NCBI GenBank assembly: GCA_965655095.1
Contig: OZ296659.1
Coordinates: 7,998,001-8,062,000 of the forward strand
Reading direction: 5' to 3'
Length of the DNA stretch: 64,000 nt
Source of the DNA: Haplodiscus bocki
Lineage: Eukaryota
Part shown: positions 9,036 through 64,000 of the stretch, one piece after another
Layout: the number at the start of each line of letters is the position of its first letter
How positions within the stretch are numbered: position 1 is the first letter of the stretch
Program-made: the position numbers and the translations under genes
Notes under the pieces: model-generated
Database searches by the model: none
Told to the model about the DNA's origin: nothing
The model's input: only the letters and a program-made list of their open reading frames with translations

Positions 9036-9039
9036 ACAA

Positions 9040-17544: not shown

Positions 17545-17605
17545 TTATCAAATGGAGAATATTGGGATCTTATATATATCATTTTAAATAATCTTATCTG
17601 AATAA

Positions 17606-18334: not shown

Positions 18335-18339
18335 AAAAA

Positions 18340-18534
18340 ATGTATATAACAAATGTTACTGATTATGATAATACGACTGATGACTATAATGATAGTTTAT
18401 CAATAAATATCAATTGTACTCTGAGTGAAACTAAAATTGTTAAAAATTTACCCACATTATTAATAACAATAGCAAGCGGCTTATCATTTTTTTGTTTGAT
18501 GAGTTTGATGGTGTACACCTTAATTAGACTTTAA
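18340..18534 (+). CDS. Small single-pass membrane protein with 4 N-glycosylation sequons
   Basis: MYITNVTDYDNTTDDYNDSLSININCT... then LLITIASGLSFFCLMSLMVYTLI. Confidence 0.5.
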   Translation: MYITNVTDYDNTTDDYNDSLSININCTLSETKIVKNLPTLLITIASGLSFFCLMSLMVYTLIRL

Positions 18535-18549
18535 TTCAATGAGAAACAA

Positions 18550-19275: not shown

Positions 19276-19284
19276 ATGGAATAA

Positions 19285-20922: not shown

Positions 20923-21070
20923 TAAATGCCAAAGATAAAATCAAGATTACATTCTAATAAACACAAACCCAAAATGAACCAAGAACTGAATAATACTAAA
21001 TCAAATTTACTCCAAATTTTTAATCTTTCAAACAAAAATAACTATCAGGAGATGGTTCCACTGTGTATAA

Positions 21071-22362: not shown

Positions 22363-22365
22363 TAA

Positions 22366-22747
22366 TTGAAAATATTAAATTTTAAAGATTTTCGAAAAAA
22401 AATATAATTTGAAAGATGATACTATGAACGAGTTATAACTGCAAAAACATTATAAATATCCTATATACTCCCGAGTGTCAAAACTGTATTCAAACAAAGG
22501 ATTTGTAAATATTGACGATGGATCTCAACAAGGCTCTCACTGGACAACTTCTTACGTTAAGAATAATAAATCATATTACTTCGATAGTTTTGGTGGTCAG
22601 GCAGATAAGTTTCTACTCAAACAAATACCTAAACCAAAAATCTATCATAAATATAAACTTCAAGATATAAATTCTAAGTTATGTGGCTCATTCTGCTCAT
22701 ACTTTTTTTTAATTGAAAGAATGAATTATTACGATGCTGTTTTATAA
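22366..22747 (+). pseudogene. Adenain-like cysteine maturation protease
   Basis: VNID....GSHW, YYFDSFG, LQDINSKLCGSFC catalytic motifs. Confidence 0.93.
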
Positions 22748-22766
22748 ATGTATTTTGATTAATTAA

Positions 22767-35200: not shown

Positions 35201-35203
35201 TAT

Positions 35204-35510
35204 TTGTTAATGTTTTACCTGTTATATGTTGAGGTAAATGGAGAATTATATGTACTTGAAAAAGCTTTTCGTTTCTGTATATATCTTTTTGATATATGAA
35301 GTGCACTGAAAAAACTTTTTGCGTGTTCTAGTTGTAGCTGAAAGATTAAAAATTTATTGATGTAATTCTATAATTTCACTACAAAGAAGTGTACAAAAAG
35401 GCATATGACATCCGTCGCGAAAGATCGCACATTTTAACAAAAAATAAAAATATAAAAAATTCATAGCAGAGTTATCCTACACAGGTTAATTGTTTGTTTT
35501 ATATTATTTT
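35204..35510 (+). repeat. Orphan copy of Polinton right-TIR segment (32881-33185)
   Basis: Direct match including gcatatgacatccgtcgcgaaagatcgcacat and tcatagcagagttatcctacacagg. Confidence 0.93.
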
Positions 35511-36049
35511 CATATTCTCAAAAAAATCTATTTTGATTTTGACACAACCCTATAGTTGCAATGGTTTTATCTTTGTGTTGTAGAGACCCTATTCGTGGGT
35601 TTTTTTCTACTCTACGGCTCCCTATTTTTCCTTTCCCACGCCGTAAGTCTTAAAGTCAGAACTTGAATTTTCCTTTGCATAGCGTCTTTCGAATTTAAGA
35701 TGCTGCCTTCTGAGGTGACTGCGTGAAACTTAGTAAGGCCTCATTTGTCAACTAAGAGAGTTCTTAGATCGTATTGAAGTCCGTTTTACCTATCAAAACT
35801 GTTTTGTCTTGCAAGACATAAAAGTAAAATTGTATGATCAGTATTGATCAGACATTGTGCGCGAACGTCGATTGTTCACAGTTTTGCAATCCTTGTCCTA
35901 AAAATATTTTTCTTCGACACTCTCCCAACTTTAAAATATCCCTTATACGGACAGCTTCATTCGATTTCTTCTAGCAACGTTTTGCTTGAACGCAGTTTGA
36001 AAAATTTTCTCTAATTATACCCACAACCTTTTAGTTGCAGGCAACTTAT

Positions 36050-41900: not shown

Positions 41901-43230
41901 AATTAACAGCTGCAAACTAATCATGGAAGAATACCATCTGTAACCAAACAATCATTGAATAATTCATTCTTTGGTTCATCGTTCTTTAAAAACACATTTG
42001 AAAATATAGTGTTCTTTTCACCCTCTGATACTCCTTTGAACGTTGAATCAAGACTGCCATTCAAAAAAAGAGATACTAATTTGAAGATTGTAAATAAAGG
42101 GATCACTGAAAAATTACGTCCTGTTGTAAAAACACCCCTATAACTGCTAGTCCATTCTTGCCAGAACATTATCAATTATCTCCAAATCTGTTGAGTAATG
42201 GAAAGGCTAAACTAAAAAAACCCGAACTCTGCAAAAATATAAAAAATTCCATAGTACACTAATGATAAACTTTCTTCTCAAAAATCTCGCTCACGCTTAC
42301 CACTGATTTTGTTTCAGTCTGCATTTGATAAAATTCATGAAAACGCTTATGCTGGTCTGCATTTTGCACATTAAAATTTTCATCAAATTTATTGTATTCC
42401 ACTTCTGCAAAAAAGACAGTCGATTCTCATTCGCGAATTTTTTGATTGCCAATTGGATAAAACGAAAAAAAATTAAGCAAAACAAAGCTGCAATCTTCCC
42501 CTTCTCGAAACTGTCAACTTTTCTCAACATTGGTGTTTTTTATGGTTACTAAAGGTTCAGTAAACCTTGCTTCTGAAAGAAAACAATACCTTCATGTAAC
42601 TTCCGATCATTTTACGATTTACATTGCAACTGTACCAACTGCAAAAAAAAATCTCAATACAGTGTAACTTCCTGAATTAACACTGGAAATCTAAGTTTGG
42701 TCGTCCTCAATATCTGATTACACATAGAGGAACTGAAAATTTTAATTCGGAAACGGAAAATAAATGCTGTATTGTCTGTAATTTTCCTTTTTCTTTGAGA
42801 ACTTCACTTTCCGCGGGGACAAATGGATTTGTTCAAGCACAAAAAAAGTCTTGGAACCCATCTGCGACTATTTTTGTACGACTTGCTTAAGAATTGGTCT
42901 ATTCAAGAACATTTCTTTGATTACGCTCACAATTCTCAACCATTATCACGTCTGCTTTTTCATACAAATCTATATGAAGAAGTTTTTCATACGCAACCGC
43001 ATAATCCAATGAATTTCCAGTCAAACCTTTCTCGAAACATTTTTCGTGGAAGTACTCTAGGAAATCGTTCTTGTTTGCTTCCTCCTTCTCATTATCAAGG
43101 AATTGACTTATATCGGTTGTTTCATAGCAATAAATTGAAACCAATTCCTGCTTGGTTCCTTGCTATAGAAACAGCACTGCTGCATTTTTTTTCGAAAGTA
43201 TATCAAAACGCACTTTTATGTACATGTTTA
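38990..43230 (+). pseudogene. pol: pol (PR-RT-RH-INT), copy D
   Basis: GSALVYIDDILL (YIDD at 40669-40680); integrase KFGRPQYLIT.RGTE and LGTHLRLFL..NWS..FFDYAHNSQP. Confidence 0.88.
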
Positions 43231-43879
43231 CATATGTTTGTTCCTTTTTATAAAATGGAAGAACTTCACCTTTTTTATTCTCCAAAAAACTGGAACTTCC
43301 TACTGATGCGTCACTGATTTTTACTTCTGAAAAAAAGGTAAATGGTTCGTTTCCTTTCCCATTTATGGGTTATCATATTTTTTTCTGTAATTCTGTTCGG
43401 CGAAGTGGCAGCAAGCAACAGTCTTCTGTTGCAAGACAAATTGTTGCGTTTTTGAAATGGTTTTTCTTCTAACAGTTCATAGACCACAAAAGTCATCAGC
43501 TTCCCAAATTGCAATGATTCTAAGACAAGTAATCAGCATTTGGTTTGGAACCACTTTTTCCAATGTTCAAAAGTTGACAGCGAATTCACAACAACAGTAA
43601 CAGGAAGATCACTCTGCTCCTCAAAGACCCATAAAAATTCTGTTAGCACGTCGGTTTAGAAATGTAAAAAACTCTCCAAGCGGAGAAATTCAGCTGCTAA
43701 AAGCCGCAGTAGTAGTGTTTTATCCATTCTGACCGGAGATTATGTTGTGCAAACGGGCTTGTTTGAAACGCATTTTCTGAGAAACTGTTCTACTTGCACA
43801 TCCTCATCACAAGTTCAGCACAAAAAAGACACGCGGAGGTGTGTTTTTTTGACGAAGGAGAAAAGATCATGTTTATATC

Positions 43880-45890
43880 ACTAAATTGATTTAATTTAGA
43901 AGCTGTCAAACCATTTTAAAGTCAAATTAAAAAATACTAAAACAATATTACAACAAATTGCAATTTTGAGTGATACCGATATCACTGATAAAGATTGTAC
44001 GATTGAAAAAAGGATAGCACAAAATGAAGGTCCTTTTTCTCCTGGTTTAGCACTGATTAACAATGCATCTACCTCCGAAATTCATAAGGACTCTCAAAAA
44101 AGAAAAATGATAACTGCAAACTATTCATGAAACCTATCTTATGTATTTTAACAGTGATTGAATATTTCATTGTTTGATGCATCCATTTTTGCATTCAAGG
44201 AGTTCTTGAATTTTTTCACCTTCTGGAACTCATTTGAAAGTTTGAATTTTATTGAAATAAGAAATAGAGGAACCTTTTTGAAGTTTGCGTGTATATTGAT
44301 CACCGAAAATTCAAGTCCTGTTGAAAAACACTCACTTTAACTGTCAGTCCTTTCTTGCTGGAACATTATCAATTTTTTTTCAAAACTTTGTATTGATAAA
44401 AGTACTAAACCGACATTTTTTAAAACCCAACATCTGAAAAAGAGTGATACTTTTCCACAGTACACTGATGATTACCTTTCTTCTCGACTACCTCGTTTAT
44501 GCTTACCACTGAATTTGTTTCGTTATGCATTTGATAAATTTCATGAACACTTTCATGCTGGTCTGCACATCGCGAAACTTATTTTCAATCAGTAATTTTG
44601 TATTCCAGTTCTGCAGAATCAATTGTTGATTCTGATTCAAGACTTTATTGATTTCCAAATGGATAGAAACAAAAACTTGAAACAAAACAAAGCTGCAATC
44701 TCATCTTTTTGGAAATTACCAACTTTCTTTAAACCATAGTATTTCTTTGGATTCTAAGGGTCCAACAAAACATGCTTGTGAAAGAATTAATTACATTTCT
44801 GTAAGTGATGATCATTCTAGCAATTTTATTTCAACTGTACCAACTCCAAAAAATAATGGTCATTACGCTGTACCTTCTTTTTTTCACCTCTGGATTGCAA
44901 AATTTGATATTCCTCAATCTCTCGATACCTGATAAAAGTTAGAGAAACTGAATATCCTATTTCTGAAAAGGTAACGTGCTGTACTCTGTCCATTTCTCGT
45001 CAATCTCCAAAAACTCAACTACTCCTTGGACAAACGGACTTGTTGAAGTACAAAATAAAAATGCTGGAAACCATCTGAGATTTTTTCGATATGATACCCC
45101 TGAAAAATGGTCTATCCATGTACATTTCTTTGCTAAAGCTCAAAAAACTCAACCATTATCACTTCTGCATATTTCACCACACGAAACAGTTTTTCATACG
45201 CAAACACGTATTCCACTGAAGTTTCAACTGAATCTTTAACGAAATCCACTCCGTGAATGTAGTGCACCATACTGTTCGCATTTGCCACCTCATTCTCATT
45301 ATAATTCAACCGACTTAGATCCGTTGTTTCATGGCATTATATTGAAAACAGTTTCCGTTTGGTTGCTCGCTATTGAAACAGCGAAATTGCAAATTTATTC
45401 AAAAGTAAATCAGTCTGCTCTGAAAAAATTCTCCTTCATATACAAAGCAAAATTCACCGAAAATTGAAAAACCATTACCGCTGAATTCAACTGTTTTACA
45501 CCGAAATTTAAGGCTGTTTAATTTTAGGATGAACTGAAACCACTTCGTAATGGCACTTTCAAATTTGTTAAGAAGCCTAAGGGAGCCACGTTTGAACTTT
45601 TGACACAAAAAGGAAAAACATTTCACGCACAATGGAATCTTTTGATTCCACGTTATCCTAATAAACCTCTGCACTTTCTTCACAATAAAATATACAGTAA
45701 ACTAAGTACTGAATTTATTCAAAATTTTGAAACTACAGACTTGATTCAAATTGATTTACAAAACTTCATACGAAAAATTCTGAACTTGACATTAATGTTT
45801 ATGATGATGAACCGTGCTATAATGACGGTGATGATCAATCAATTGTGTTCCATAATTAAATATACGAGTCCTTAAAATCAGATGATAAAC
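43880..45890 (+). mobile_element. Gypsy-like copy E: RH-INT linker and integrase fragment
   Basis: Parallels 41680-43200; HAGL, DSKGP, PWTNGLVEVQNKN.GNHLR motifs. Confidence 0.87.
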
Positions 45891-45919
45891 AGTATTGAAC
45901 CTGTTCTTATTCAAAGACT

Positions 45920-47622
45920 GTTGGGGTAGCTTCTAATGCAGGTTCATGTGTCAGTACATAGTTCACATTATTGTCAGGATCTGAAACCATGACATTCTTA
46001 GCACTAATACCACAAGATATAGAGGTAGCTTAATTGAAAGTTGGTCTTGTTATTGGATCAATAATTTTTACATTATGTTGATAGTTTAATGGTACGCCAT
46101 CAAATTATTTATCAGTTTCAAACAGAGGTGAAGGAAAATGAGGACCGTCAAATAACCAAGCAATAGACCCTTCTACATAGAGAAAGTTACTACGGATTCC
46201 TGCTAGAAGGTAACCAGCAAGATGAGGATGTTGAACAGACACTGTTAAAGAGTTAGCAATTGCGTTGGCTCTAGTTCCCAGATATGATAAAATGTATTCA
46301 GTTCTTGAATAGTCTTAGACTTAAATACATGATTGACAGAATAATCTATCTTTGTGTTTAGACGAGCAGCCTTGTCTACAGTACTGAATTAAATAAATTT
46401 GTCGAAGGAGGAAAAAACTTTTTTTACAGAATCAAAGACCAATGCTTAATGGCGAAGACAATGACTGTTGACTAAATGATGAGTCTTCATCAACAACAAC
46501 TGGGTTTTTGTTTCCAGTGTTCCCATTGAAACCCTCACGATAAATGACAAACAAGTGAAGACATTGAGTTGTGTACATTTGTGTCAATTTTTACGGAAGA
46601 AAAATTTCTGGGTAAGTTTCCAGTTTTGATAATGTTGGTGTGGTAGTTCCCAGTGTTGAATTAGTATGATGAAAAACAGTTGGCAGTATGCCTTCCATAT
46701 TTTTTCCAGTGTTCTTTCCAGTAAAAAAGACATCAGTTTCACCAATAACGATTTTTCAGTTCAGACATTCGTCCAATGAAGTCAGAGATATGGACTATTA
46801 AACATAAATCTCCAGGAAACCAGGCAATAGTAAATGGATGTTTCAGTGTCTGTCCACAGGAACCTTCAGAAAGCAGACATGGAAGGATATGGCCTTCAAG
46901 TATTAGTTTATCTGGTTAATCATCATAACTCAGAGAGGTTTCTTAATGATTTAATGACCAATTATCTTGATCAAAAAGATGTTCGTTATCTTCTGAATGT
47001 CTTGATTTTGAGTTTTCAGTACCAGTATTGCAATCATATTTTTTCGCTTGATAGGTGGACCAGTATGTACAGTATTCAGTTTGGTTACATTAAAAGATGT
47101 TTGTTTTTTTCATGTCGAACTTGAAAACTCAGTCAATCAAAAATTGTTGAAGGGCCGTTGTAGGAAGTCTGATTAAGCTCAGAACTATCCGTACAATTAA
47201 GGTTTGGGATAAAAGTCTCACAAAATTTTTGATCCACGTCTTTAGGTAATGACATGGAGTTAGTACACCAGTCATTACGATCACGTCTATACGGTTGGTA
47301 TGCGCACCATGAGCACAAAAGACCATGTGCTTTTGAACTGTTGCAGAGCAGTGAAAGGCTTGACTTCTCTTCGCCATAGCACAAAAGGAGACAGAACCAA
47401 ATTTTCTTGTAATTTCAATTTCAGAGGGAACTTGGGTACCTTCTTGTACTCGAGTTAAACTAAATTGTCTCAGATTGTGCTCTTTCTTGTTTCGAACAAC
47501 CATAATGAGTAGCTAGGATTTGAGTTAGCCTAGGATCATCCAGTTGATATAAAACTTTCAGAAGTGATTGTAGTAACAGTGTGCAGCAAAGAGGAAATTA
47601 TCACTACAGAAAATAAAATCAT
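45920..47622 (-). pseudogene. env: Envelope glycoprotein, N-terminal two thirds (class III, chuvirus G / gB-like)
   Basis: Signal peptide MILFSVVIISSLLHTVTT; ILATHYGCS..HNLRQFSLTRVQE.TQVPSEIE; Cys-rich AFHCSATV..FC; LTVSVQHPHLAGYLLAGIRSNFLYVEGSIAWLFD. Confidence 0.72.
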
Positions 47623-49499
47623 AGTTTTCAGAAAGTAGTTTTTTACCTTACACCAGAGATTTGGTTGACGAAAATCATACATCCCCATCGATGGTTAAAA
47701 GGAGGTTCGTCAATGGATTTACTCTGTAATTTAGTCACAACAAAAGGACTCTGAAAAGTACGGTGGTTAGTTTGAGTTGAGGTTGTAATTGAATGAGCAT
47801 TTTATCCAGTGAATTTGACAGTTACTTCGAAATCTACCTCGGTTGAAGTTTGATTTAACCTTGTCAATTCTCGATTACTAGTAAACGGGGGAATTTTGCA
47901 GACTTTTGTTAATTCTGTTTACCGGGAGAAAGTGATTACTCAGATCATGTCTGGGTTGATTGCTTCTTTGATTACCAAGTCTCAGTGGATAATGGTATGC
48001 ATCAGGTGTAGGAGGTCTAGAGTTTTCTTCTAGCGTATGATTTGGAAGATCAACAGTATTGATAGCACTCGGAGAAGTGACTGATTCTTGGTCTCTAATT
48101 AGACAAGTAGATCTTGGGTACGCGTGAACAGTAAAAGAAGCTTCAATATCAGAAGAAGGTCTCAAGGAAAGTCGAAAAACAGAGAAGAAGAAGAAGGAAG
48201 TTTTTCAGAAGTAGATGAATTAGGTTGCGCGTGTTAACGCAAAAATGCACAGATTGAAGTTGATGTTGATCTTGTTTGAGAGGAAGACGATGGCTGTATA
48301 TGTCCTGATCCCAGATTGTAAGAATGGTTTAATATTTGAGGGTAGGCTGTTAATGTAAGATTCAATGGGACTTTAGGTTCCCAAATCCGAAAATCATCAA
48401 CAGAATATGTAGAGAATAAACTCGAAAATGATTTTATGAAAATAGATAAAACAGCGAAAATAATTCCGAGCTAATATTGGAAGCAGTGTTCAGATTAGGT
48501 AGATTTACCGAAAGTGATGGTTCATCAATTTTTTCCCGCAGAGTAGAAATCTTCGGTTCATTACAGAAACTAGCGTCAAGTGACTTTGGCTCTTTGAATG
48601 ACTTTGAATATCTAACTACAGCTTTAGTAAGAGGCGGAGGCGGTAATGGAAAATGAGGAGGATCTGTATCAGACGGTTCCGGGATTTAAATAAGTCCAGG
48701 GGGACTAAACGGAGTGTTAGTCGGAGCTACTGGTAACGGGAGAAGGGGAGGTCTTTGAACAGTTACAGTAGGTCTGAAAAAGTCTTCATAGAAAGAAAGA
48801 AATTTTTCCAAATTGCTCAAAGTCTGTTTTGTACATCCAGTATTTATGAACTTTGAGTTTGTTTCCGCCAGTGGTAGAGCAGTGAAATTTTAAACTCAAT
48901 TAATTTCGGAATTGAGTTCAAGATTACGTCTGTATTAGAAAACAAGTTACAGCCTGTTAGTTACAGGATTTAAGGGTTCGTCACAATATGAGTTTCTTCA
49001 AAAATAACTGAAGCGAAGTTATCATTTCTAAAAACTTCAATTGGATTTCATTTTTCTTATACTACAGCAGTGTTTGTTTGGATGTTTGCAATTTCAGTTT
49101 TCAAAGAAAGTTATTCAGATTGTTTTATTTCTGTTTAGAATAGATAGCAGTCTCTTAAAAGCAGAATAGAGGAGATATAATCTATGACGAACAAGAAAAA
49201 GATTACTATGGATATTTCCATAGGTTTTTTATGATCAACTCTATGCAGCTTGATTCAATCTCTAGGAGCAATTTTCTTCAATTGATCTGTGGTGGAATTG
49301 AGTTTTCATCCGGAGAAGAAAGTGATGGAAAGAAAACAATTTTTTCCTCAGTAGTGGTCGTACATAAAAACTTGTTTCGATTATTTTTATCGGAGGTTTG
49401 TGGTTGATTTGATATCAGATGGGAGTTTGATTGGTTAGCGAAAAACATAAGAAAGTCACAAATAGTATCAGTGTCGGCAAGATCAATTTATGCAGGAAA

Positions 49500-52400
49500 T
49501 TTATTGAGGGATTGAAATTTTGGCGACCTTCACTTTAGAAGAGATTTTCACTATCAGATTTTTATCAAGAGTGATAATAAGTATTATATTTTGATTTTTT
49601 AGATTTGTATACTTCAGCACCAAGCAAAATTGACTGACCACCATCGTCATTACAGAATGGGTCATAGTCGAAAACATTATCATCAATTTCACAGTCTCCG
49701 TATGAAGTAAATAAATCTATTTGAATCAAATCTATTGTATCAGGATTATGGTATAATTCAGGATTTTTTCAAAGCATATTTGAACCTGACGAAAGAACAA
49801 AGGTTCTTTAAGATAATATGGAACCAACGCTTTCGATTGCGTGAAATATTTCTCCATCTTGTGTCAAAAGTTCATACATCACTTCCGTAAGCTTGTTAAC
49901 AATTTTGAAAAGATGATTACGAAGTGATTTCAGTTGATCCGTTATTTGAACAGCTTTAAACCTTCGGTGTAAAACAGATGACTTCAGCGGCAAGAGTTTT
50001 TTAAGGTTGGGTGATTTTTGCATTGCATATGCAAAATAAAATGTTTTTTCAGTGTGTGTTGATAAGCATTTCAAAAAATTTGCAGCACTGCTGTTCAAAA
50101 AGCGAGGAACCAATTAGAAATTGGTTTCAACGTAAAGCTTTGAAGCAACAGATTTTATAGCTTAGCAACAGAAGTGAGGAGGCAAATCAGAACAGTATTG
50201 TGCAGTTTATTCGCGAAATGGACTTTGAGAAAGGTTTGTTTGAAAACTCAGTGGAATACGCGGTTGCGCATGAAAAACTTCTTCATATAGTGAAATAAGC
50301 AGAAATGATAATGGTTGAGAATTGTGAGCAAAAAGAAAAACGTCTATTTGAACAGACCATTTTTCTGGGGTGTCGTGTAAAAACATTCGCAGATGGGTTC
50401 CATGATTTTTTTGAACTTGAACAAGTCTATTTGTTCTAGGAGCATATGAACATCTTAGAGAATGACGAATTTTAATCGGTGTACAGCAAATTGCCATTTC
50501 AGAATTAGGATCTTCAGTTCCTTTATCTGTAATCAAGTATTGAGGACGACCAGTTTTAGAAACCCAGCCCCAGCGTTGAATTAAGGAAGTTACACTGTAA
50601 GCAGATTTTTCATGGAGTTGGTACAGTTGCAATGTAAAAGCTAAAATGACCAACAGTTACCTGAAGGTATTGATTTCCTTGAGAAACAGTCTTTATTGGA
50701 CGATTAATTTGCAGAGAAACACTGTGGGTGAAAACGGTTGACAGTTTTGAGAAGGTTAATTTTGCAGCTTTGTTTTGTTTCAAATTTTCGTTTTTATCCA
50801 ATTGGTAATCAATCAGGTCATGAATGAGAATCGAGAGTCTGTTTTACCGAAAAAGATAACAATAATATTGCTTAAAATCATATCTTGCAAAATGCAGACC
50901 AGCATGAGAGTGTTGATGAATTTCATCAAATGCAGAATGAGACAAATTCAGTGGTAAGCATTAGCGAGCTTTTGAGAAGAAATGTTATCATTAATATACT
51001 GTGGAAGTTTATCTTTTCTTTGGAGCTTGGGTTTTTCTAGTTGAATATTTAAAATTTTATACATTATACAGGTTTGGAGATAAATGCTAATGAACTAGCA
51101 GCAACGGACTAGCAGTTATAAAGGATGTTTTTAGAGCAAGAGTGAATTTTCAGTGATCCATTTATATACAGTCTTCATTTTAAGATTTTTTTTTCTGATA
51201 ATTTAGTATTGTTTTGATGTTCAGTGGAGTATCAGAAGGTAGGAAAGATTCACTATTTTTAGATGTGTTTATAACGAACGATGGATCGAAGAATGAATTT
51301 CTGAAAGATTGTTTGATGGAAGATGGATTTGTTTCATGAATAGTTTGCAGTTGTGAAACTTCAATTTTAGAGTCATTCTTTTTTTTCACGGAAAGATGTA
51401 TTTATTAGTCAGTGAAAAATGAAGGAAGGAAGGATCATCTTTTTATGGTATGCCTTTCTCAAAAGGATCATCTCTTTCAGTGGTTTGGGTGTCATTGAGA
51501 CTTGCAGATTGTTGTAACACAGTTTTAGTAGTTTCTTTGATTTGTTTTCTTTTTTGACTCTAAGTTGCTTTGACAATTTCGACGGAGACCGAACCTAGTG
51601 GTTTAAATATGATGTTTTCTCATCTGTCAAAAATACGAAAGGAGACTTGAAAGTTTCCGAAGTCAGCCACAATAGGATGACAATTGCGCCTTTGCGAAAG
51701 AAATACACTTTCATTTTTGACCAAACAGTGTGCAAGTTTGATTTGGTTATCAAATGTCAGTGTTGCAAAGCGAATTTGCTGAGGTAGATAGATGTTTGTG
51801 TTTTATTTAAATCAGTTGCTGTTGTTTTTGAGTAAGGGGCGACTTAACATAGCAGCTGCAAAAGACTTTTTCCTTTCGTAAATAAAATGCGGAAGTTTTC
51901 AAACTTGCCTAAATGCATCTGTGAAGTGTGAAAAGTTTGAGGTTTTTTCTCGGTGAGACAGCTGGTGATTGGTTTATGATCATTCAAAAGAATAACGAAA
52001 TGATCAGAGCCATTGATACTTTGTTCGTATAGCGTCGGTGATTATACGATTCTTTTTACTTCAGGATATGTAGTAGACTTTCTGTTCAATAGTAGTAGAA
52101 TTTAGAGAAAAAGATAGCAAACAGTATCAAGTTGTCGTTTGTCTTTCGTTTGGTGTGAGACACAGCCTTTGCCAGTTAAGGAACAATCTACGGCAAAAAG
52201 GAATGGATGGTTTGTAATGGGTGGTGACAGAATAACAACTTTGTCATTGAAAGTTTCAATTTGTTGAAAAATTGTTTCCAGTTCAATATTTAAGTGGAAA
52301 AAATATTATCAAAGAACTAAGTCATTCAAAGGCTTCATTTCAACACAAAGTTTATCAAATATTCTAGAATGGAAGTTCATTGAGCCAATGAACTTCGTCA

Positions 52401-54324
52401 ATTGAGCCTTGTATTTTGAGATGGAAATTTTATGAATTGCGGCTATTTCGGACAAAATGTAAAAAAACTAATTTCAAATCCAAGTTATTTCACAGTGAGA
52501 ATCAAAAAGAAGGATTTTTCGGGAGCTAAGTGCAGTTTTTTTAACAATATTTTGAAGTTGTGTGATTAGTTGCAGCATATGTGGTTTGGAGTGGAATAAC
52601 ATCAAAATAAACCAATGAAGATCCTTGACGGATCAAATGTTTGAGAAAAAAGAGACTGATGTGGTAAGAAAACGTTTGGAAGACCTCCGAGGCCATGAAA
52701 ACTTCTAATGAAAGCAAAAAGTTATCATCAGATGAAGATCCAGTATATTTGATAGTCTGATCATCTAATGTAGCGTTTATATATGCGTATTTATGATCAA
52801 TTGCAGATTTACATTCTTTTCTTGTCCTAGCAACTTGTTTTGTTAAAGGTTCCAGTGGTCAGGATTCAGATGCTGGATCACTGTTTTGTTGAGATGTCTA
52901 GCATCCAACACAATTTTAAGAGAATCATTCTTTTTTTATGACAATCAATTGATTCAGAAAAGAAGTTCCTGAAAATGGTTTTTCTTGAGGCGTTGCACCA
53001 ATTTGCACCCTTTTTCCAATTTTTGTAGATCATCATATGAAAGATTCAATTTGTCCCGATAATGTATAGGAATTGTAGTGGGTCTTTGTGGTTGCAGTTT
53101 AGCATCAAGTTTCAATCTAATCCCAAATGGAGTAGAATGTTTTCCGATATCATTACAATTTATAGCATGACAGTGTTTAGTTTCTACAAGAATTTTACAG
53201 AGTTGAATTTTTCAGGATCATTAAATTAGGGTTTTGAAAATGATTTTTCTTTAGAATTTTCAACTCTTCCTCGGAGTATGGTGAAGGCGGAATAACTCGT
53301 GGAGCTAAATTTTGAGACGGTTGTACATTCCAGACAATTTTGTTAAATGTTGGATCTTTATAGCATCAATATGATTACCTTCGGAAAAATTGTTTTTGAT
53401 TGGTATTTTGATAATGAACATTAATTGCTTCAGTTTTTTCAGGATGGTAGGTTTTAATCACCGTTGAATCAGTTTATTTAAGTCATTAGTTCTATAAGTA
53501 TATGGCTTCACAGAGGTAATAGGAAATTCTTTATGTTCTATATTTCAGGTTGGTAGTGTAGCCGTGTGCATGGTATTATTTTTAGTAAATACTGAGCAGA
53601 AATCTTCAGAATTCTTTGATGAAAGTTCCATAAAGGATAAATATCGTTTCAATTTTGAGACAATTTGAGCTTGAGGCATTTCAGCTAAAAACCGTTCAAG
53701 TTTTTCACTCTTAAGCAATATAGTTTTTGAATTTCTCCGTTCGAGGTGTCAGGTTTGTACAGTATTGGGTTCAAAATGTGTTGCCCTTTTTGATTTCGTT
53801 TGATAAATAAATGAAAAGAAGGGAAAGATTTTTTTCAGTCTGTGTGGTGAAGGAAGCAATTGTGGCGTGATCATTGAAAGAATGTTGGACATTCATGGTG
53901 AAATCCTGAATTGGAATGTTTTGTACGTATTTTGCAAAGAATGGCGTTCCAAGAATACTAAATTTTATATCCGCTGCAGCAAAAGAATCTTGGAACAACT
54001 TGATTTTGTTTCTATTGACGAGAAACAAGTTACAGGAATGTTCTGTTCACTTGGAACCTCATATTGGTTTGCAACATTCACTTTTTGTGACGTACCATGT
54101 TGATCATGGAAGCAACCCTTGAACCCAGTTATCATCATTCACGTTGGTGTATCAAGTAAAAAATTAAATGAACCGCTATCCAAAAGAAAAGCGGTTTCAA
54201 GCCTTGAAGGTAAGTGTGAATCAGTTTCGCTTTGAGAATGAACATACACAATAATAAACCAACTTGTCGGAGATATAGTTTGTGTCGTTCCAGTTGTAGA
54301 CATATAAACTTCAATTTTCTTCAT
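49500..54324 (-). pseudogene. pol: pol (PR-RT-RH-INT), copy F
   Basis: Protease FLLDSGS (ORF 54139..54324); RT block 52300-52950; integrase GRPQYLITDKGTE and AHNSQPLS. Confidence 0.88.
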
Positions 54325-54329
54325 CGACT

Positions 54330-57300
54330 TTGAAAAGTCTTCATTAGGGTCGTGATGATTTTCAGGGGACTTTGGTTGTACATTACTACCAAATCTTGTA
54401 GATGTGGAGGCAGATCGTGGACGTGGTCTTGACGGAGGTCAGTAAGAAGAAATATAATTTCTAAAATAATGTCGATTTCCAGAGTTTGGTCCAGAAAAAG
54501 AACGATAGCAGTTTTTTCTGACAGAATAATAAAATCTAGTTTTTCTTCGTTGGTTATAAAATTTAATGTGTCCTGAAATTGATGGAGTTTGATTAGAATT
54601 GAATTCTCTGCCACGATAACGTTTTTAAGAACGAGAACCTTCATGTTCATCACATGAAACTGAAAGTGATGTATTAGAAGAGGATCAATTTGGAAAATTT
54701 GGATTTAATGATCTTGAACAATTTTATGACTCATAAATATTTCAGGATCAATAGTTTACAGGATTGGATGAAGGTTGTTCGTTTGGATGAAATTGATTCT
54801 GGTGTCCTTCCAAGTATTGATTAAAGGATTTCACAGGTGATTTAGAACAAGAATAATATTCCCGTTTTGTTTGTTTGTCTTCGCGCTGTTTGAGAAAACA
54901 GTTTGAGATAAAGTGATTGGATCTATGAAAAGAAATACAGGTTTTCCGAAACTGAGGTTAGCTTTTTTATTCGGTTGTTTGCGTGAACGTGACTTTAGGA
55001 TTTGGATCATAATTTTCAGCGGATATCTTTTTAATTTCAACTTTTGATGTTACATTGTTAATTTCCTGTGGTAGATCAAAAACACGAATCTTCTCACTTG
55101 TTACATCTTCACCATCAACAAGTTTAACCAGTGTCTGAAGTTTACCGGATAGCAGTGCACTCCATAGTAGTATACACCAGAGCAGTGTATCTATGCTTGA
55201 CTCACCGTTTATGAGCAGTCTTTTAGTTTTTTGGCCTAACCTTGAGTGGAAATTTCATTACACTTGCGTTTAATAGTTGAAGCAGATTCAGTACACATGC
55301 CTTTTTCAACTAAATGATGAAGTTTCAGAGCTTAATGACGTATGTACTCAGTATCTTTTTACGTTGAAAGTTGTGCTTCAACTTCTGCGTAGGATGCAGT
55401 TTTCGGTGAAGATAATTATTTTTTAAAATGTAGATACAAATGCAAGTCAGTCTTTTTTATAGCTTTATTGAAGTCACACGAAACAGCCTAAAAGAAATCC
55501 AGATAAAGAACGTTGTACTCATGCAATTTTTCGTTTGTGCCATTGAATAGAAGGTATTGGAGCAAGACGTTGTTCCCCCATAGTCAAATACACGTGTGCA
55601 TCAAATTGATATAAAGTTTTTCCGGGAGTATTTTGATGGTCAAGTCCAACCAAAGTTTTTTTTACAGATTTGTTCATTGCAACAGAGAAAACAGCAGTGC
55701 TTTTGTAATTACAGGAGAACTGTTCATTGGATTTGAAGTGGAACATGATGAAAATTATGTTCCTAAGGGACTTTCATTAGCTGCGATGGGTGGTTGATAT
55801 AACGTTCCAGATGGATATGCAGAGGCTTTCGAAATAGTAATTGTTTGGAATTGGTTTTTGTTGGTCCTACTCGATGAGTAAGTATCACCGACATTCAGCG
55901 GAGTCAATGGAGGTCTTGACTGAGTAAGAACAGTTGTAGCTACTGTATTCAGCATAAATGTTTAATCATTTGATCTACTTGTTTGATTTTTAACAGTTTG
56001 GGTATTTTGAAATTGGTTAAGATAATCAGTAAAAGGATTTTACTTTGATATATTCCTATTGATTTCATTGAGTTGAGAAAATGGTAATGCTGCAGTGTTT
56101 TGAAAATGAAATTGATTAGATGTTTCACCAGAAGGTTTATCTTGAGATATACACTTTTCAGATGGTTTTGGATCATTATGAACATAAGAACTGCTTCGAG
56201 TAAATAAATAAATCTTGGACCTTTGGGAAAATGCAGTGGTATCGTAACACCTGGTATCAGAGTCGAAGTGGTTGCATTAGAGACCTCAGTGACGTCATTG
56301 GGAGACATTTTTTCAGTGATTCCAGTATTGTTTATCTTTGGATTTAAAATAACAGAAATTGTCTCTGTTTAAGGTTGAAAACCAGCACTGGTATTTTTTG
56401 TGAATTTTGAGCACTAAATCTTTTTGGTGGCCAGTGATTGAATTGAAAAAATTTCGTCAAAATTGTGGTCAATAGATCTATTTGCAGTGATTGCTCCTGT
56501 AATGGCTTTGGGTAGAAGTTCGAGTTGGGAAAAAACTTCAGTATTGATTCGGAGTAAGTTAAGGTATTTTGGATGAAATTTTTCAGTTGTAACCAAAAAC
56601 GGAATTACTTAATGTTCAGTGAAATGGTTTGAAAACTTTTTAGTACAAATTGCACTGAAGTGTTCCAGATAAGTTGATAAAATAATCGGAATTTTTTTCT
56701 CAGAAACAGAGATAAGAGTTTAATTTGTGGTTTTGTTACACTGTCTAAAACAGATAAAAGGGAGAAAAAAGTAAATTGGAAAGCATTTGTTTGAACAAGA
56801 TTACGCATTAGCCAGTGGTCTGGATTATTAGGTTTCTTAACTTTATCTAAATCAGAAGTTTCAAAAAGGTGTTGTTTGCTCCGGAGTTCATCCTTTGCAG
56901 AGGCAACAACAATAGATTGTTCTAAAAACTCATATTAGTTTCTCGCAGTTTATTCAGAAAACGTACGAATACATCCTGGATGGGTAAATAAATATATCTT
57001 GGACTTTTTGTCTTCAAAAACCTTCCAGAATTTTTCTTAATTGGGGTAAAAACTACAGTAAAAGATTCATCGGCATAACTTGATTCACAAGTTTAATATT
57101 GATTATATTACAAATAGGAGTGATGGTGTTCTGTAATCAGAGTATTTGAATAAAAGTCATTACAGTTGTTTCCGAAAAGCAAAGAAGTTGTTAGATTATG
57201 AATACAATTTTTGGTAAAGCTAATAGCATCCGTAATAAATTTCCATTTTTGTCTTTTTCTAATGACGTGAAAGGTGAAAGCTGTAAGAAAGTAAAGTGCA

Positions 57301-57973
57301 GATCTTGCAATGTGTTGCGTTGGTACCTCTTCTGATGTTGAAGGTATCATTTTAGATGTTTCCAGTGTATAATAATCATATTGGATTTCACTATCAGGTT
57401 GATTCGTTGGTTGTATCAATTGATTACGTTCCAGTTCTTTTTTTCGTAGTAATTCATTTGAGCCTCGATTCTTTTTTCATGTTGAAACCATTAACGTTCT
57501 TTTTCAGCTTGAGTTTGGTATATTGACAAATCTCTCAGAGAATTGTGGTTGCAATTCTAATGATGGATTTTGTGCTTGTTCAGTAGATATCTCAAAGCTG
57601 GAAGGTTCTGAGACTTTCAGTCATCTGATATGTCGGAGGACTTATGATTTCCAGTTTCGACACTTCGGTGATGTTGTAATCCTAAACGTTCACTATCAAC
57701 TTGAGTTTGTTCTAATGGAAAAATTTCAACGAACTTTTGTCGCAATTCTACTAATGGATTTTCTACTTTTCCAGTAAGTATCTTAGAATAAGAAGGTTCT
57801 GCGACTTGCAGTGGATTATTTTGTGTACTTTCAGTTGGGTTTGTATTTGGCTCCACAGAAGTTTCAGCTTGAAGAGGTTCCGTATAATTCTCAGTGAGGC
57901 GGTTCTGAGCATCATTTTCATTTTTAGATGGAATTTCTGAGTGTGAATCAGTCGTTTGGTGTCTTTTTGACAT
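54330..57973 (-). pseudogene. gag: gag with long N-terminal extension (copy F)
   Basis: Starts MSKRHQ..; capsid-like GLDHQ.TP...LYQFDAH..MGEQ..QWHKRKIA; knuckle KTCISFHRSNHFISNC near 54900. Confidence 0.65.
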
Positions 57974-59362
57974 GATTTCATGACTTTACCGGAGAGTTAG
58001 GACTTATATAAATCCAGAAGTTTTCAATAAACAATACAAGTATTCTTCAAACAATTCTTCGCAAAAAATTGAATGAATCATGTTCAAGATTGTTGTATAT
58101 GTATATACAAATCCAACAGCCAGGAATGATGAAAGAAAATACGATGTGGTTATAAAACAATAAATAATCAGAAAGTTGCGCTTAACCAAAAGATTGTTTT
58201 CAAAAGTGAGAAAATTATTTGAAACTGTGTTCAACCAACGGACTGCTAGCAGAGTTTAAACTAGGTTTTCCGTGCGAAAGACTTTTTTAGAGGTGGGAAT
58301 AGTGAAAGGAGAATACACTTTCAGGACAGGGAATGGGAAACTATGAACAATCAAGGTTCGCTCACAATGTCTCTTCAATACTCATCGTAATTTTTTACTT
58401 TTACATTTTACAAGACAAGAGAAGTGCGATAGGTAGAAGGGAATTCAGAACTATCTAGGAAATCTTTCGGTTGACCAATAAGTTCTAACTAAGTTTTAGG
58501 CAGTCACCTTAGTAGTCAGCTACATAAAAATCCAAAGCCGTTAAGCAAAGAAACCTTCAGGTTTCGATTTTACGTCTTACAGGCTCGAAAAGGAAACATA
58601 GCGAGCCACAGAGTACAAAACTACCTACAAGGAACATTTTTACAACGAAAAAAGTAGGACCAATGCAACAGTAGACTTGTGTGAAAAACGATTTTTTCGA
58701 CAAAATGAAATGGTATGATCAGAAAAAGGCAAAGAAATTTGCATATAGGAAGTTTCAAAGTTAATAGTATGAACTATAGGAAAAAGAACCAAAGAAGATA
58801 GTAACAGAAACTTCAGAGGGAAAAATATTGTTTACAGAGATGAGGTATGAAAATTTCAGGGAGTTATAAAATTTTTTGTCGATGTTAACAGAAAAAACGG
58901 TTAGCAAAAAATGCAAAATGAGGGAAACAGAATGGTAAAAAATAAAAGCTGCCCAGGACTCGAATAGTAAAAACAAATGGTCCAGTTTACGATACTAGAA
59001 TGGATTAGACTCAGAGTCTACGCGGGATTCAGTTACGAAGAGTCACAGCGAATAAAAATGTAGAAAAGTTGGCCAATTTTACAGTTTAAACGACTTTCGA
59101 AGTTTAATATCCGAAGGACTCGGAATTTAGAGTCGAAGCAATTATCAAGTGTGAAGCAGAAACGAAGTATACACTCCAAAAGACTGGAAGGTCAAAATTG
59201 AAAAGATTGGTCGAAAATTGAAGAAAAGTTTTTTTTGATTTTTTGAACTATTGGAAAAAAACGTCCAAAAATTGGAGAAAAAGATAGGAAAGTAAATGTA
59301 AAAGAAAGAGAAACAGCAGAACTTTTGAGAGTGAAGTAAGAGACGTTTGACGAGGATGAAGT

Positions 59363-59380
59363 TTCTCTGTTTTCGCACCA
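59363..59380 (-). promoter_or_regulatory. Primer-binding site (degenerate, possibly tRNA-Phe type)
   Basis: Minus strand reads ...aataCA aat TGGTGCGAAAACAGAGAA directly after the LTR end. Confidence 0.5.
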
Positions 59381-59383
59381 ATT

Positions 59384-59700
59384 TGTATTAAACTTTAAAA
59401 GATGGTAAATTGCTTGCTAGCTGAGGCAGTTTGTTACTAAGTAGGGCGTTTTCTAGACTTGCTTTAGTTGATGTTATTTCTCTGACTTCCATACGCTAAC
59501 TCTTTATAACGTTTCGCAGTAGTTCCCTTGAGAGAAAAATTTTTGTCTACTTGGATAACACTTTATTTCTAACTTGATATCTCGATCAAAACATTCATGA
59601 AAATTCATAAACAAATGACAATTATGAACAAAGTTACATTTGGTCCAATGATATTTCAGAAATTTTTCTCTAATTTTAAATTTGTAACAGCAGAGAAGGA
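59384..59700 (-). repeat. 3' part of the 5' LTR of copy F
   Basis: Homologous to 8770-9035; truncated by the satellite. Confidence 0.6.
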
Positions 59701-59704: not shown

Positions 59705-62700
59705 CATAATTAGCGCATGGAAGAAGCCCGTGTGAAACAACGATTCGAAATTGCTGTGAGAGCTAGCTCATGGAAAACGGTCTGCCTAAGTCACCTGCAA
59801 GAGGCTTGCCGAAAAAATCCCAGCAAAAAATGTACGTAGGGGTAAAAAAGGGTCCAGCAGAAAGGCGTTCTTAAAAAAATTGCGCAAACTGGTGCCCAGA
59901 AAAACACGTTGTCAAAAAAAACGCACGGAAAAGCCGGTACGAGTTAGTCCAGTGAAAACTGTGTGCAAAGAGCCGCATCAAAGCATTTGCGGAAAAGCAT
60001 CTGCAGAAAAGCGTGCGGAAAAAACCAGCAAAATAGCTCACTGAAAAATCCCACGTGAAACAGCCTATGGAAAAACTTCTGCAGAAAAAAGCTTAAAAAA
60101 CCTCTTGCAACAAAAACCAGCAAAGGAATGTAGATATAAAGCGTCTGCAGATACCTCGAGGACGAGTTCCATCTAAAATGGTGCACAGAAGCTCTTGAGA
60201 AGGGCACACGAAAGATATTCGCTTCCGGCCCACGGAAGCGCATGGAAACATTTTTCGTAGACAAACGCATGGGGAAAGACACGAAAAATAACACGCCGAA
60301 GCATCTTTTCAGAAAAGGCACACAGAAAAAGATACAGAGCTACCGCACGGAGAAAGCTCGTGTGAAAAAATGCATAGAAAAACTTCTGCCTAATAGGTCC
60401 TTGAAGAACCTCTGTGAACAATGCACTGGATACAAGATCACTGAAAAAGCCTCAAAACAAGCCGAGCGTTGAACAGCACAGCAAAACAGCGAACACAAAA
60501 ACCTGCAGCAGAATAGTGCATAGGAAGCGCCACGGCGAAAAAGGTGCTCGTAAATAGCGCCAAGCAAAACACGGCCTAGGAATTTTATATCATCAGAGCC
60601 AGTGATTCACAAAATGAAAAAACCTCTGTAGTTGTTTTTAGTCAGAACAGCAAACGCAGAGAACCGTTAAAAAATGAACAGAAGAAAACACAGAAACAGA
60701 AATTTAGCCCACGGCGAAACCGTCACAAAAAAATCGCATGGAGAAGGCCAGTTTTACACAACACACGGATAAGTATTCAGAGTAGTGCACACCAGATTTT
60801 ATAAAGAACAGCGCATGGAAAATGTTCCCTCCAAATCAGCGCACTGAAAAAGACACAGAATTTTACCTGATGGAAGAAGATGGGATGAAACAACAATTGA
60901 AAACTCCTCTGGGAAACCGTCCAAGGAAAAATGTCAGCAGAAAGCCCCAACAAAAAAAGCAACTGCAAAAAAGTGCGTAGAAGAATACCCATTTCAAACG
61001 CAAAACGCCCCTGGAAACTTTCGCACGGAAAAACATTCGCAGAATATCAAGCCGATAAGGTCAGCCAACGTAGCACGTGGAAAAGGTTCCAATGAAATAG
61101 CGCACGGGAGAAGTTTCTGTCGAGTAGTGTAGGAAAAACCCTGCAGAAAACGCAGAGGGGAACTTCAGCGAAGTATGCGCGGAAAAAAGAACCCACTGCA
61201 AATAAACTCCCCGGAAGCGGAAAAGAAGACAAGGAATCGCTCCAGCAAAGAAGCGCAAGGAAAAACTCCAGCAAATTAGCCTATGGGACCTGTACAGTTT
61301 AGTAGCCCACGAAAAAAGCCCATCAAAAAGGCGCACAGAAAAATAGTTCTGCACACTAGTGGAATAAAAGCAAGCCGGTCTAAAGAAGCGGTCTGAAAAA
61401 AATCCCACAAAACGTTGCGCCAAAAAAAATCCAACAACGGAGTTCGCCAAAAAATCTTCTGCGAAAAAACGTTTTTACTTTTATCTGCAAAAACAATCCC
61501 TTCCAAAATTCCCCGGGAAAGAAGCTCTGCAAAAACCGTTCCGTAAAGCGGTTCAACCAGAGTGCATGGAAAAAAGCCCATCAGAAAGGCACGACGAAAA
61601 AATAGAAGCAAATTAGCCTTCAGAAAAAGGTCTTCAAAAGAGTGCACAAAAAAATTTTTTATGAAGTACCGCTAAGAAAAAAGATTCTGCGGGTTACTCC
61701 ATGGAAGAAACCGCTGTTAAAAACAGCACAAAAGGCATTCTGCAAATTGGTGCTCGGGAGAAACTTCTTCATAAAAGTGCGCTGGAAAATTTCATGCGCA
61801 ATAACGGACTGAAGAAACTCTGCGAAAGAAGGCACGGAAAAAAACGGTAGCAAAATAGTGCTCGGCGGAAGCCTAAGTGAACAGCGTACCGAGAAAACTG
61901 TTGCGGTATAGCGCTTACAAAAATTCAAAAATTTCCGGGGAAACTCCGTAGCAAAAATACTCTGAGAAAAAGCTCGGCAAATTAGCGACTGGAGATTAGC
62001 CAAAAGACAGACGCCCAAAAAAACCTATCGAAATGGCGCACGGACAAAACCCCAACAAAGAGAGCACGCAAAAGAAGCCACGGCAACTGATAGTACGAAA
62101 AATCTTCTGCGAACTAGCCCGCAGAGGAGCCCTGCTGCTTTTTGTTTGAAGAAACCACTACAAAACAGTTCAGGAAAATAAATTGTGCAGTGAGGAACAC
62201 AGAAAAACTTCTGCCAAATACCGTGCGGTGAACCCCTTTAAAAATGGATGTAAAAGGTTTTAGCAAGAAAAGCACTGAAAAAAGCACACCTAAAACGAAA
62301 CTGCCAAATGTGGATAGAAAAACTTCATCAAAAAGCTCCAACGAATTTGGTTAAGGCATAAAACTCTGCAAATTATTGCATCGAAAGCGCTCCAACCTAT
62401 TAGCGCATGGATGAAGGCCCATCAGGTTTACGCTTTGAAAAAATCCCAACAAAACAGCTTGCGTAGAAAAATCATAAAAAGAGGGCAAAAGAAGCCTTCA
62501 CGGAAAGGCCTGAAAAAAATGCGAGGACACTCAGGAAAATGGTTCACGGAAAAGCCACTGGAAAACCTAACATGGAAAAACAATTTTGAAAGAAAGCAAA
62601 GAAGAAGGAAGGCTAGGCAAAATTGCGCTCGGATAATGTCCTAACAAAAAGCGAAGAAAATAGGCTGTGCAAAGTGGCGCATAAAAAAGACCACAAAACA

Positions 62701-63618
62701 CGTTTGCCTAAAGAATTCAAACATAGGAGTGAGCAAAAACGTCTCTGATAGAAAGTGTGCGGGAAAAAACCCTGCACTGCTGAGCGCGGGAATAAACCCG
62801 GCAGAAAATGCACTTCACGGAAAGGCTTCTGCCTACTTGTGTACTGGAAAACTGCTGCAAAATTGAGCTTTCAAAAAGAGTCAGCAAACTGGCGCACAAA
62901 GAAGCTCCAGGAAAATAGTAGAAGCAAAACGGCCCAGCGACTTGAAACACGGGAATTGGCATTGCGAACTCTCACACGGAGAAATCTGCAAAACAACGTG
63001 GGGAAGAACGCCAAACAAATTAGCGCGCAGAATTGCCTTGTGCGGATTGGACCACAGAAAGAGTTTTGGCTCGAAAGTACCCAAAATGCCCTTCAGAAAA
63101 CGCAGGTAAGAACCCCAGCAGAATAGGCGCAATGTATTTAAAGCTGGAAGAAAGCGCGTAAAAAAACGTCAGTGGAACGTCCCGGCGAAAAACGCAAAGA
63201 AAAACCCTCAGTAAACTAGCTTTTGGAGATTGTCTCACCTTAATCGCGCATGAAAAAGCCCATCAAAGTAGTGCAGAGAAAAAGTCTCTCTGCATAAGAG
63301 CGCGATAAAAGAAGCCGCTGTAAAGGTGCGTTCGAAAACAAATTCCCTCAGGGTAGTTCACGGTAAAAACCCCGCAAAATAGTGCACCGAACAAACTTTT
63401 GCAAAAAAGCGCTGACAGAAAGATCGGAAAAATGCAGAATCAAAAATTCCCACAGAAAAAATATTTGAAGAACACCTTACGACTACGGTCCAGCCAAACA
63501 ATGAATCGTATAAAGCCCGTCAAATTGGCGCACCGAAAAAGTAGCAGCAAAAAAGCACGCAGAAAATAACTTTCGAAAGAAGGCACAAAAAGGTTTTCTT
63601 GAAGTAGCGTAAGGAAAG
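59705..63618 (+). repeat. Highly degenerate ~26-28-bp satellite/minisatellite, A-rich on + strand
   Basis: Recurrent (at)agcgca(c/t)ggaaaaa.ccc..gcaaaa units, e.g. at 59711, 60011-60090, 60238, 60811, 61098, 61561, 62401 and 63245. Confidence 0.7.
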
Positions 63619-63818
63619 NNNNNNNNNNNNNNNNNNNNNNNNNNNNNNNNNNNNNNNNNNNNNNNNNNNNNNNNNNNNNNNNNNNNNNNNNNNNNNNNNN
63701 NNNNNNNNNNNNNNNNNNNNNNNNNNNNNNNNNNNNNNNNNNNNNNNNNNNNNNNNNNNNNNNNNNNNNNNNNNNNNNNNNNNNNNNNNNNNNNNNNNNN
63801 NNNNNNNNNNNNNNNNNN
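63619..63818. other. Assembly gap (200 N)
   Basis: Run of exactly 200 N, typical of a scaffolding join. Confidence 0.99.
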
Positions 63819-64000
63819 AATGTAACAGCTTACATTTCAAAGTGCAGCTAGCCTCTGTCACTACGTGATGCCGTTACTCTATCCAATATGACCTAAGGGA
63901 GTGTTTTCTTTTGCAGTAACCTATATGAAACGATATAGAAGCCATTATGTTCGATTACTTCCCTACTCACGATATGAACACAAGTACATTATAGGATCAT

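Follow-up and report, generated by a model that had tools for sequence, protein, structure and literature searches.

A decayed Ty3/gypsy family with a gB-type env gene and additional reading frames in Haplodiscus bocki

A survey of Ty3/gypsy elements that bear an env gene (Chary & Hayashi, eLife 2026; PMC13524379) listed 1,512 such elements, 221 of them with an env of the HSV/gB (herpes simplex virus glycoprotein B) type (Supplementary file 1). In the portions of this paper available to us, env genes of this type are described on Ty3/gypsy elements across metazoans; 114 were found with the chuvirus-like glycoprotein of mosquito BEL/Pao elements as bait, and this glycoprotein also adjoins gypsy pol. 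An older view, given in the available text of PMC10084718, was that Gypsy associations of the chuvirus-like glycoprotein are fragmentary only. Among larger elements, the planarian Burro/GYPSM1 is read in the available text of PMC6431247 as a group of proviruses meddling with host pathways; the same text reserves "giant" for an internal region of >20 kb and mentions other long terminal repeat (LTR) elements in which additional genes lie either between pol and env or downstream of env. Here we describe a Ty3/gypsy element with a chuvirus/gB-like env in the genome of Haplodiscus bocki. The window analysed (64,000 nucleotides; contig OZ296659.1, C12 in our numbering, positions 7,998,001 to 8,062,000 of the 1.5-Gb assembly GCA_965655095.1) is a tangle of nested, inverted and duplicated repeat fragments, and the element, decayed and 3'-truncated, lies at 45890-59689 on its minus strand.

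We interpret this element, with a probability of roughly 0.85, as a decayed member of an old family, now extinct, of HSV/gB-type "ancient errantiviruses" that were 19-20 kb long and had a complex gene set. A previous sequence-only reading of the locus had also proposed a Gypsy-type element with such an env. It repeated the older view that captures of such envelope genes are described mainly in BEL/Pao elements, which is outdated given the gypsy cases described in PMC13524379.

Gag-pol and env between one pair of LTRs

At 45920-59700, the list of open reading frames (ORFs) contains no surviving frame as long as 150 codons. Domain order was read by tblastn with intact pol proteins of co-resident families as queries, and on the minus strand it agreed with the order protease (PR), reverse transcriptase (RT), RNase H (RH), integrase (IN) that had been proposed, PR being weak alone. 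Pieces of the family within the window were 63-75% identical to each other in a self-comparison. The gene order of the family is LTR, leader, gag-pol, short hydrophobic frame, ORF-X, env, ORF-Y1, ORF-Y2, LTR (Table 1).

Linkage was examined in 12 sister copies, taken from 41 non-self DNA matches to env, each with ~15 kb on either side. Pol DNA was located upstream on the same strand in 11 of these copies, the 3' LTR was present in 10, and LTR DNA was found at both ends in five. The two LTRs matched each other in four copies (80.1% over 282 bp, 78.5% over 172 bp, 73.2% over 310 bp and 72.8% over 276 bp), and env was downstream of pol also in two further copies picked by RT. One sister copy spans 21.7 kb including a 2.6-kb internal duplication, that is ~19.1 kb, and another ~19.2 kb; three copies with deletions span 17.1, 16.7 and 16.3 kb. 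When the 11.7-kb 5' half from the window is joined to the 3' half of five copies, which measures 7.9-8.2 kb, the total is 19.6-19.9 kb. Both estimates agree with the ~19-20 kb summed in the sequence-only reading, and the internal region of ~19 kb is below the >20 kb that defines giant transposons in the available text of PMC6431247. The LTR of 306 bp is shorter than the ~0.64 kb assumed previously. The 4-bp flanks agreed at three of four letters in all three readable copies (by eye), suggesting a target duplication of 4 bp, which was also seen in five of six young copies of other families. A stretch beginning TGGTGCG resembles a primer-binding site, and no entry fitting it was present in the tRNA table of PMC13524379 as available.

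The fragmented state of the window, in which no copy is complete, would also suit a different explanation: env may be a chance neighbour, either a viral insertion or a nested piece, and the size of 19-20 kb an artefact of summing fragments. Four different contigs carry gag-pol-env in collinear order, flanked by LTRs that match, which refutes this explanation and leaves it a practically negligible probability. An env unlinked to gag-pol between one LTR pair, which the sequence-only reading had named as an outcome fatal to it, was thus not what the sister copies revealed.

The LTR ends, domain order and pol sequence are those by which Metaviridae are recognised, and on its sequence the element is assigned to Ty3/gypsy. 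Among natural pol fragments, two matched RT_RNaseH_2 (PF17919) above cut-off, and matches to RT_RNaseH (PF17917) and rve were also detected; the match to SH3_Tf2-1 (PF24626) was weak, and most natural fragments matched nothing in Pfam. With P0377, an RT relative 61% identical to a family copy, the first of 12 PDB sequences was Ty3 RT (E 2e-21), followed by a polyprotein that we take to be of caulimovirus type and by foamy-virus Pol. Peptidase_A17 and DUF1759, which are markers of BEL/Pao, had no match among the pol and gag pieces scanned against Pfam. BEL/Pao and Gypsy cannot be told apart by domain order alone. An Anakin-type BEL/Pao element would have the same PR-RT-RH-IN order together with a chuvirus-like glycoprotein, and it is this env family that the available text of PMC10084718 describes for mosquito BEL/Pao. 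However, the Gypsy-type Pfam models and the best PDB match largely refute this identity, which we regard as highly improbable, and the Gypsy assignment of the sequence-only reading holds.

The window env has a hydrophobic start near 47620 and ATHYGCS and FSLTRV motifs, as had been reported for a same-sense env after gag-pol. Further motifs (CELER...WLYDC...DRIP) and a hydrophobic anchor do exist in clean text, in a second copy near the beginning of the window and not within 45920-59700, where env breaks off before its anchor. The window env matches residues 47-605 of an intact natural relative, P0123 (883 aa), with E 1e-89. P0123 matched the Monjiviricetes_fusion family (PF24664) at E 3.6e-26, three of five env fragments matched it as well, and the feature neighbours of P0123 in Atlas were clusters of PF24664, herpes gB and rhabdovirus G (0.92-0.94). 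Class III fusogens are trimeric proteins with a signal peptide and a C-terminal anchor; a hydrophobic C-terminal segment was found in three of four relatives and an N-terminal one in two of four (threshold 1.6). Three observations weigh against a fusogen of this class: the Atlas recognition score of P0123 (1477) is below the level at which matches are strong evidence, a profile of the env alignment yielded only two chance matches in PDB (E >1), and the hydrophobicity of the env anchor is modest (peak 1.69). Membership of the PF24664 family nonetheless points to a class III fusogen, in line with the chuvirus/gB-like env proposed earlier. Intact env relatives measure 876-883 aa (~2.6 kb, longer than the ~2.1 kb previously estimated for env). 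In other assemblies, intact relatives of 876-918 aa were present, some in clusters of 424-1,758 members, which suggests intact and recently multiplied copies there. A scan of JGI metagenomes with P0123 returned no relatives.

Table 1. Features of the window-family copies (positions in the window) and two non-autonomous copies of a co-resident env family (other contigs)
Feature	Position	Strand	Basis or remark
5' LTR, 306 bp, TGT...ACA ends	59384-59689	-	71% to 3' LTR at 8760-8945; LTR pairs of sister copies
Primer-binding-site-like stretch, begins TGGTGCG, 3 nt past LTR	59369-59380	-	same start in three younger families
5' leader, ~1.4 kb, non-coding, ATG-poor	57990-59368	-	longest run free of shared stops 92 codons
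Decayed gag-pol, ~8.7 kb, seemingly one frame	49243-57981	-	tblastn, Pfam, shared-stop count
PR	~54260-54170	-	tblastn E 0.07, weak alone; FLLDSGS motif read there
RT	53205-52467	-	tblastn
RNase H	52458-51862	-	tblastn
Integrase with SH3-like tail	50972-49868	-	tblastn
Short frame, ~54 codons, N-terminal hydrophobic stretch	49059-49221	-	opening ATG common to 9 of 13 copies
ORF-X, 473 codons	47630-49064	-	free of shared stops
Decayed env (predicted PF24664 class III-type fusogen), breaks off after ~residue 605 of 883	45890-47690	-	
Integrase-region fragment of the same family, inverted, abutting the truncated env	43843-45888	+	self-comparison
Second copy, C-terminal env half with hydrophobic anchor	2554-4280	+	partly duplicated at 191-2573
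ORF-Y1, 429-458 codons, shared ATG at 4790	4781-6270	+	free of shared stops
ORF-Y2, partial (sister copies: 272 codons), with a shared ATG close to its start	6480-7070	+	free of shared stops
3' LTR of second copy	8760-9036	+	self-comparison, sister copies
Third copy, leader and gag-pol	35508-43214	+	71% identical to main copy; self-comparison
Non-autonomous copy of family (e), L032/L033	C3:9857694-9871359		
Non-autonomous copy of family (e), L035/L036	C6:16810509-16825050		

The second copy comprises the 3' half of the element (2554-9036, plus strand) and is partly duplicated. Directly after its 3' LTR, part of the 3' region is present as an inverted copy (7976-8303 and 9037-9671). The integrase segment of the family has been duplicated repeatedly, with window fragments at 12520-14677, 33416-35218 and 41634-45888; one sister copy (L075/L076) contains about eight tandem 1-kb integrase units.

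Additional reading frames

Stop codons common to at least half of the aligned family copies were counted in each frame. This test recovered the known genes, with 623 codons of gag, 490 of RT, and 361 and 265 of env lacking a shared stop, and in two non-coding controls the longest runs were 92 codons (leader) and 75 codons (before the 3' LTR). No shared stop occurred over 573 codons at the gag/PR/RT junction, so that gag-pol is probably a single frame. Shared stops were likewise absent over 473 codons of ORF-X, 429 of ORF-Y1 and 272 of ORF-Y2, with 22-54 of them in the other sense frames of these regions. These counts indicate that a supposed spacer of ~1.9 kb (ORF-X) was coding, as was much of a supposed 3' region of ~4.3 kb, which exists and holds ORF-Y1 and ORF-Y2. 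The extra frames receive no validation from codon-position divergence, since RT and env, taken as controls, lacked a signal as well.

Homologues of ORF-X, ORF-Y1 and ORF-Y2 were not detected in PDB or Pfam, and none of the three matched the accessory genes of the younger env families described below. A piece of ORF-Y1 had no match in Atlas, and a homologue search with ORF-Y1 returned eight proteins, all of them short family-like pieces and none from outside the family.

Pro, Ser and Thr are abundant in ORF-X, which contains a PSAP motif. PSAP is a late domain of the endosomal sorting complex required for transport (ESCRT) pathway, and ORF-X may have been a budding adaptor acting through this motif, a role that we consider doubtful. 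PSAP is intact at one position in just five of the 12 sister copies, and ORF-X lacks a shared in-frame ATG; both points count against such a protein. Shared ATGs in any frame are scarce around ORF-X (3.7 per kb) and in the leader (3.6 per kb) compared with gag, RT, env and ORF-Y1 (13-21 per kb), and the 1.5 kb ahead of the env start contain only two, both out of frame. One shared ATG just upstream of ORF-X opens the 54-codon frame with its hydrophobic start. This frame was considered as a FAST/sORF2-like gene; the identification was not adopted. The frame is shorter, starts with the hydrophobic stretch and has no Gly-2.

An errantivirus-like cycle comprises transcription from the 5' LTR, tRNA-primed reverse transcription and insertion by integrase with a short target duplication. 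In the window family, Gag particles would have budded through Env-bearing membrane and then entered neighbouring cells; as for Drosophila errantiviruses, spread from soma to germline is the most plausible route. Env would have been translated from a subgenomic RNA, with ribosomes scanning the 1.5-kb ATG-poor upstream part to the env start; the same part of this RNA would also encode ORF-X, which splicing, recoding or initiation at a non-AUG codon would have started. It is possible, and by a narrow measure more so than the budding role of ORF-X, that ORF-Y1 and ORF-Y2 were accessory host-modulating genes, by analogy with the MATH genes of the younger families, which occupy a similar position. 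The three frames and the ATG-poor coding leader hint at a retrovirus-like programme of expression and budding.

Decay of the family and its younger relatives

None of the 150 env copies scored, out of 4,860 candidates, was intact, the longest open frame being 362 aa. Env copies were 71.6-78.3% identical (66 pairs, median 73.7), approximately equal to the LTR pairs (72.8-80.1%), and the search for intact copies with identical LTRs, which the sequence-only reading had suggested, gave none among them. A third-position excess was not clear in gag, RT, env, ORF-X or ORF-Y1. The family thus goes back to a single old burst, comprising no fewer than 150 insertions, that was followed by neutral decay, and it is extinct in this genome; ORF-Y2, which alone has a third-position excess (0.33 vs 0.25), runs counter to this history. 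As all scored copies are broken, the suggestion that the lineage is probably infectious does not apply to them, and infectivity can be inferred only for the ancestor and for intact relatives. Four sequencing runs, all from one study, contain the sequence, and no RNA run was among those listed.

At least five other PF24664 env families are present in the same genome. Family (a), with a pol of 1,847 codons, a length of >19 kb and LTRs 99.9-100% identical over the 1.4-1.5 kb compared, accounts for ~44 of the 108 RT matches that were scored (a count by eye); it carries a sub-threshold macrodomain match and an antisense frame, and a MATH gene of the TRAF type follows env. Family (b) is a relative of (a) (21.2 kb, LTRs 95.6% identical), family (c) measures 12.6-12.9 kb (LTRs 99.8-100%), and family (d) 11.6 kb, with a borderline macrodomain match at the gag end. 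Family (e) has a 721-aa env, unbroken in several dozen of 121 matches. Two of its three copies examined are young non-autonomous elements (Table 1; LTRs 98.8-100% identical): gag is joined to an integrase tail without PR, RT and RH, and next come the 721-aa env, which is unbroken, and a MATH gene of the TRAF type.

Other features of these families were also observed. Intact or near-intact gag-pol-env families of 19-21 kb (L114-L117, L043-L045), with LTRs of 1.4-3.1 kb, have a weak macrodomain match in pol; an antisense frame of 223 codons lies between pol and env, and env is followed by a frame of 206 codons and a MATH gene. In three younger families, the frames located after env (L040 5891-6976, L119 3463-5013 and L115 6464-7081) are weakly alike (E 1e-6 to 1e-10) and had no Pfam match; they may form an unnamed accessory gene family. 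YPDL occurs at the start of two younger Gags.

The RT of the window family is 34-43% identical to those of four co-resident env families, which are 50-64% identical among themselves, and its env is 26-29% identical to co-resident envs, which share 35-82%. One explanation with the same anatomy is that the class III glycoprotein was captured separately from a chuvirus-like RNA virus. Consistent with this, the family env groups with its relatives in a separate clade on a long branch (SH-aLRT 100), which falls outside the clade containing the five co-resident envs in a quick tree, which has several long branches and no named viral sequence, and the family env is ~150 aa longer with a weaker PF24664 score. 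However, the family RT is an outlier to a matching degree, and all four checked intact copies of the nearest RT families carry a PF24664 env. In addition, env mostly co-diverges with pol in the available portions of PMC13524379, and an IMG/VR scan with a 727-aa env, a single scan in which only close relatives are detectable, revealed no relative on a viral contig. An outlier position in RT and env alike is the pattern expected from long co-descent; separate capture is therefore rather improbable, and the earlier view of an independently evolved lineage is unsupported. We retain the interpretation of the window family as an old, extinct HSV/gB-type errantivirus family.

This genome combines an extinct env family with at least five younger ones, including a multiplied non-autonomous gag-env-MATH form, and offers a natural system for examining whether selection maintains env and accessory genes and whether these are expressed beside the germline. 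A broader proposal is that the host, from an animal group outside the published survey, harbours a still-mobile radiation of class III errantiviruses with accessory genes (TRAF-type MATH, macrodomain, antisense frames), and that ORF-X of the window lineage encoded a stand-alone, matrix-like protein that recruited ESCRT and was expressed together with env from a single RNA read by leaky scanning. We consider this combination unlikely, more so than the budding role of ORF-X by itself; if true, the window lineage would be an invertebrate parallel to complex retroviruses.

Additional elements were found around the family. A decayed Polinton/Maverick-like element of 18.7 kb occupies 14714-33418 of the window. 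Its terminal inverted repeats (1.3 kb, 87%) include tandem units of 153 bp; a Pox_A32 packaging ATPase lies at 18535-19095 (E 2e-9), and pieces resembling a polymerase at 28328-31875 (by eye). Polinton-like genes were also present beside sister copies (L066, L067, L081, L082, L046) and just upstream of the window, namely an adenovirus-type protease (PF00770, E 7e-4), rve, and capsid- and ATPase-like pieces recognised by eye. Positions 59800-64000 contain a different, strongly A-rich repeat (AT skew ~0.4, GC 0.43, internal 62% duplication) that had no Pfam match in seven frames; a gap of 200 N lies at 63619-63818. Elsewhere in the assembly, three Wnt loci were found (a lower bound), one with a 300-codon unbroken match, and mitochondrial COX1 on contig C6626 fits table 5, with TGA as Trp, AGA/AGG as Ser, ATA as Met and AAA as Lys at conserved sites. 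This code points to an invertebrate host outside the cnidarians, ctenophores, sponges, ascidians, echinoderms and most flatworms. Arthropod and nematode cuticle families had no match in the genome in a search run without a positive control, a weak negative. From the mitochondrial code, the small number of Wnt loci and the lack of cuticle matches, an acoel is a tentative guess at the animal group of the host.

Comparison with known systems

Among mosquito elements, Anakin is likewise an LTR element with a Chuviridae-like glycoprotein, and it belongs to BEL/Pao rather than Ty3/gypsy (PMC10084718, available text). Drosophila errantiviruses such as gypsy and ZAM spread from soma to germline, the likely life style of the window family as well. 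In MDG1 sORF2 elements, as far as the available text of PMC11952523 goes, a small hydrophobic frame after pol recalls the one found here, which lies where some lepidopteran sORF2 genes do. These systems differ from the window family in having either an F-type env or a myristoylated FAST-like protein of 63-107 aa (PMC11952523). Burro/GYPSM1, a giant gypsy element, likewise has homology to env and carries accessory domains, among them MATH_TRAF_C. However, it is >30 kb long and its env is fused in frame between gag and pol (PMC6431247, available text), whereas the env of the window family is separate and downstream, and MATH is found here only in the co-resident families.

The closest systems are the HSV/gB-type errantiviruses of PMC13524379, which share with the window family a Ty3/gypsy pol, a GAG-POL-ENV order between LTRs, a chuvirus/gB-related env and an invertebrate host. 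In the portion available to us they measure 9.3-13.0 kb from LTR to LTR (16 rows with LTR coordinates, among 30 of the 221), compared with 19-20 kb here, and the window family has three extra large frames. Its 1.6-kb gap between pol and env and its 11.5-kb span exceed the prefilters of that survey (1,000 nt for the gap, 10,000 nt). Intact, recently multiplied copies were a rule of inclusion in the survey rather than a trait of the clade; the co-resident families have such copies and the window family does not in this genome. The main text, as available, does not use "accessory" or "TRAF", and no acoel is named in the available text or supplements. Long elements with genes between or after pol and env escape such filters, and complex errantiviruses may be under-counted. 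A published report of the window family was not found in a literature search that excluded subscription papers and Repbase.

The association of a Gypsy element with a gB-like env has already been published, so it does not represent a novel way of becoming infectious. The new element here is the coding spacer and 3' region, with three frames that have no detectable homologue. In other respects the window element would have worked like a gB-type errantivirus and, judged from its sequence, is one by every structural feature tested.

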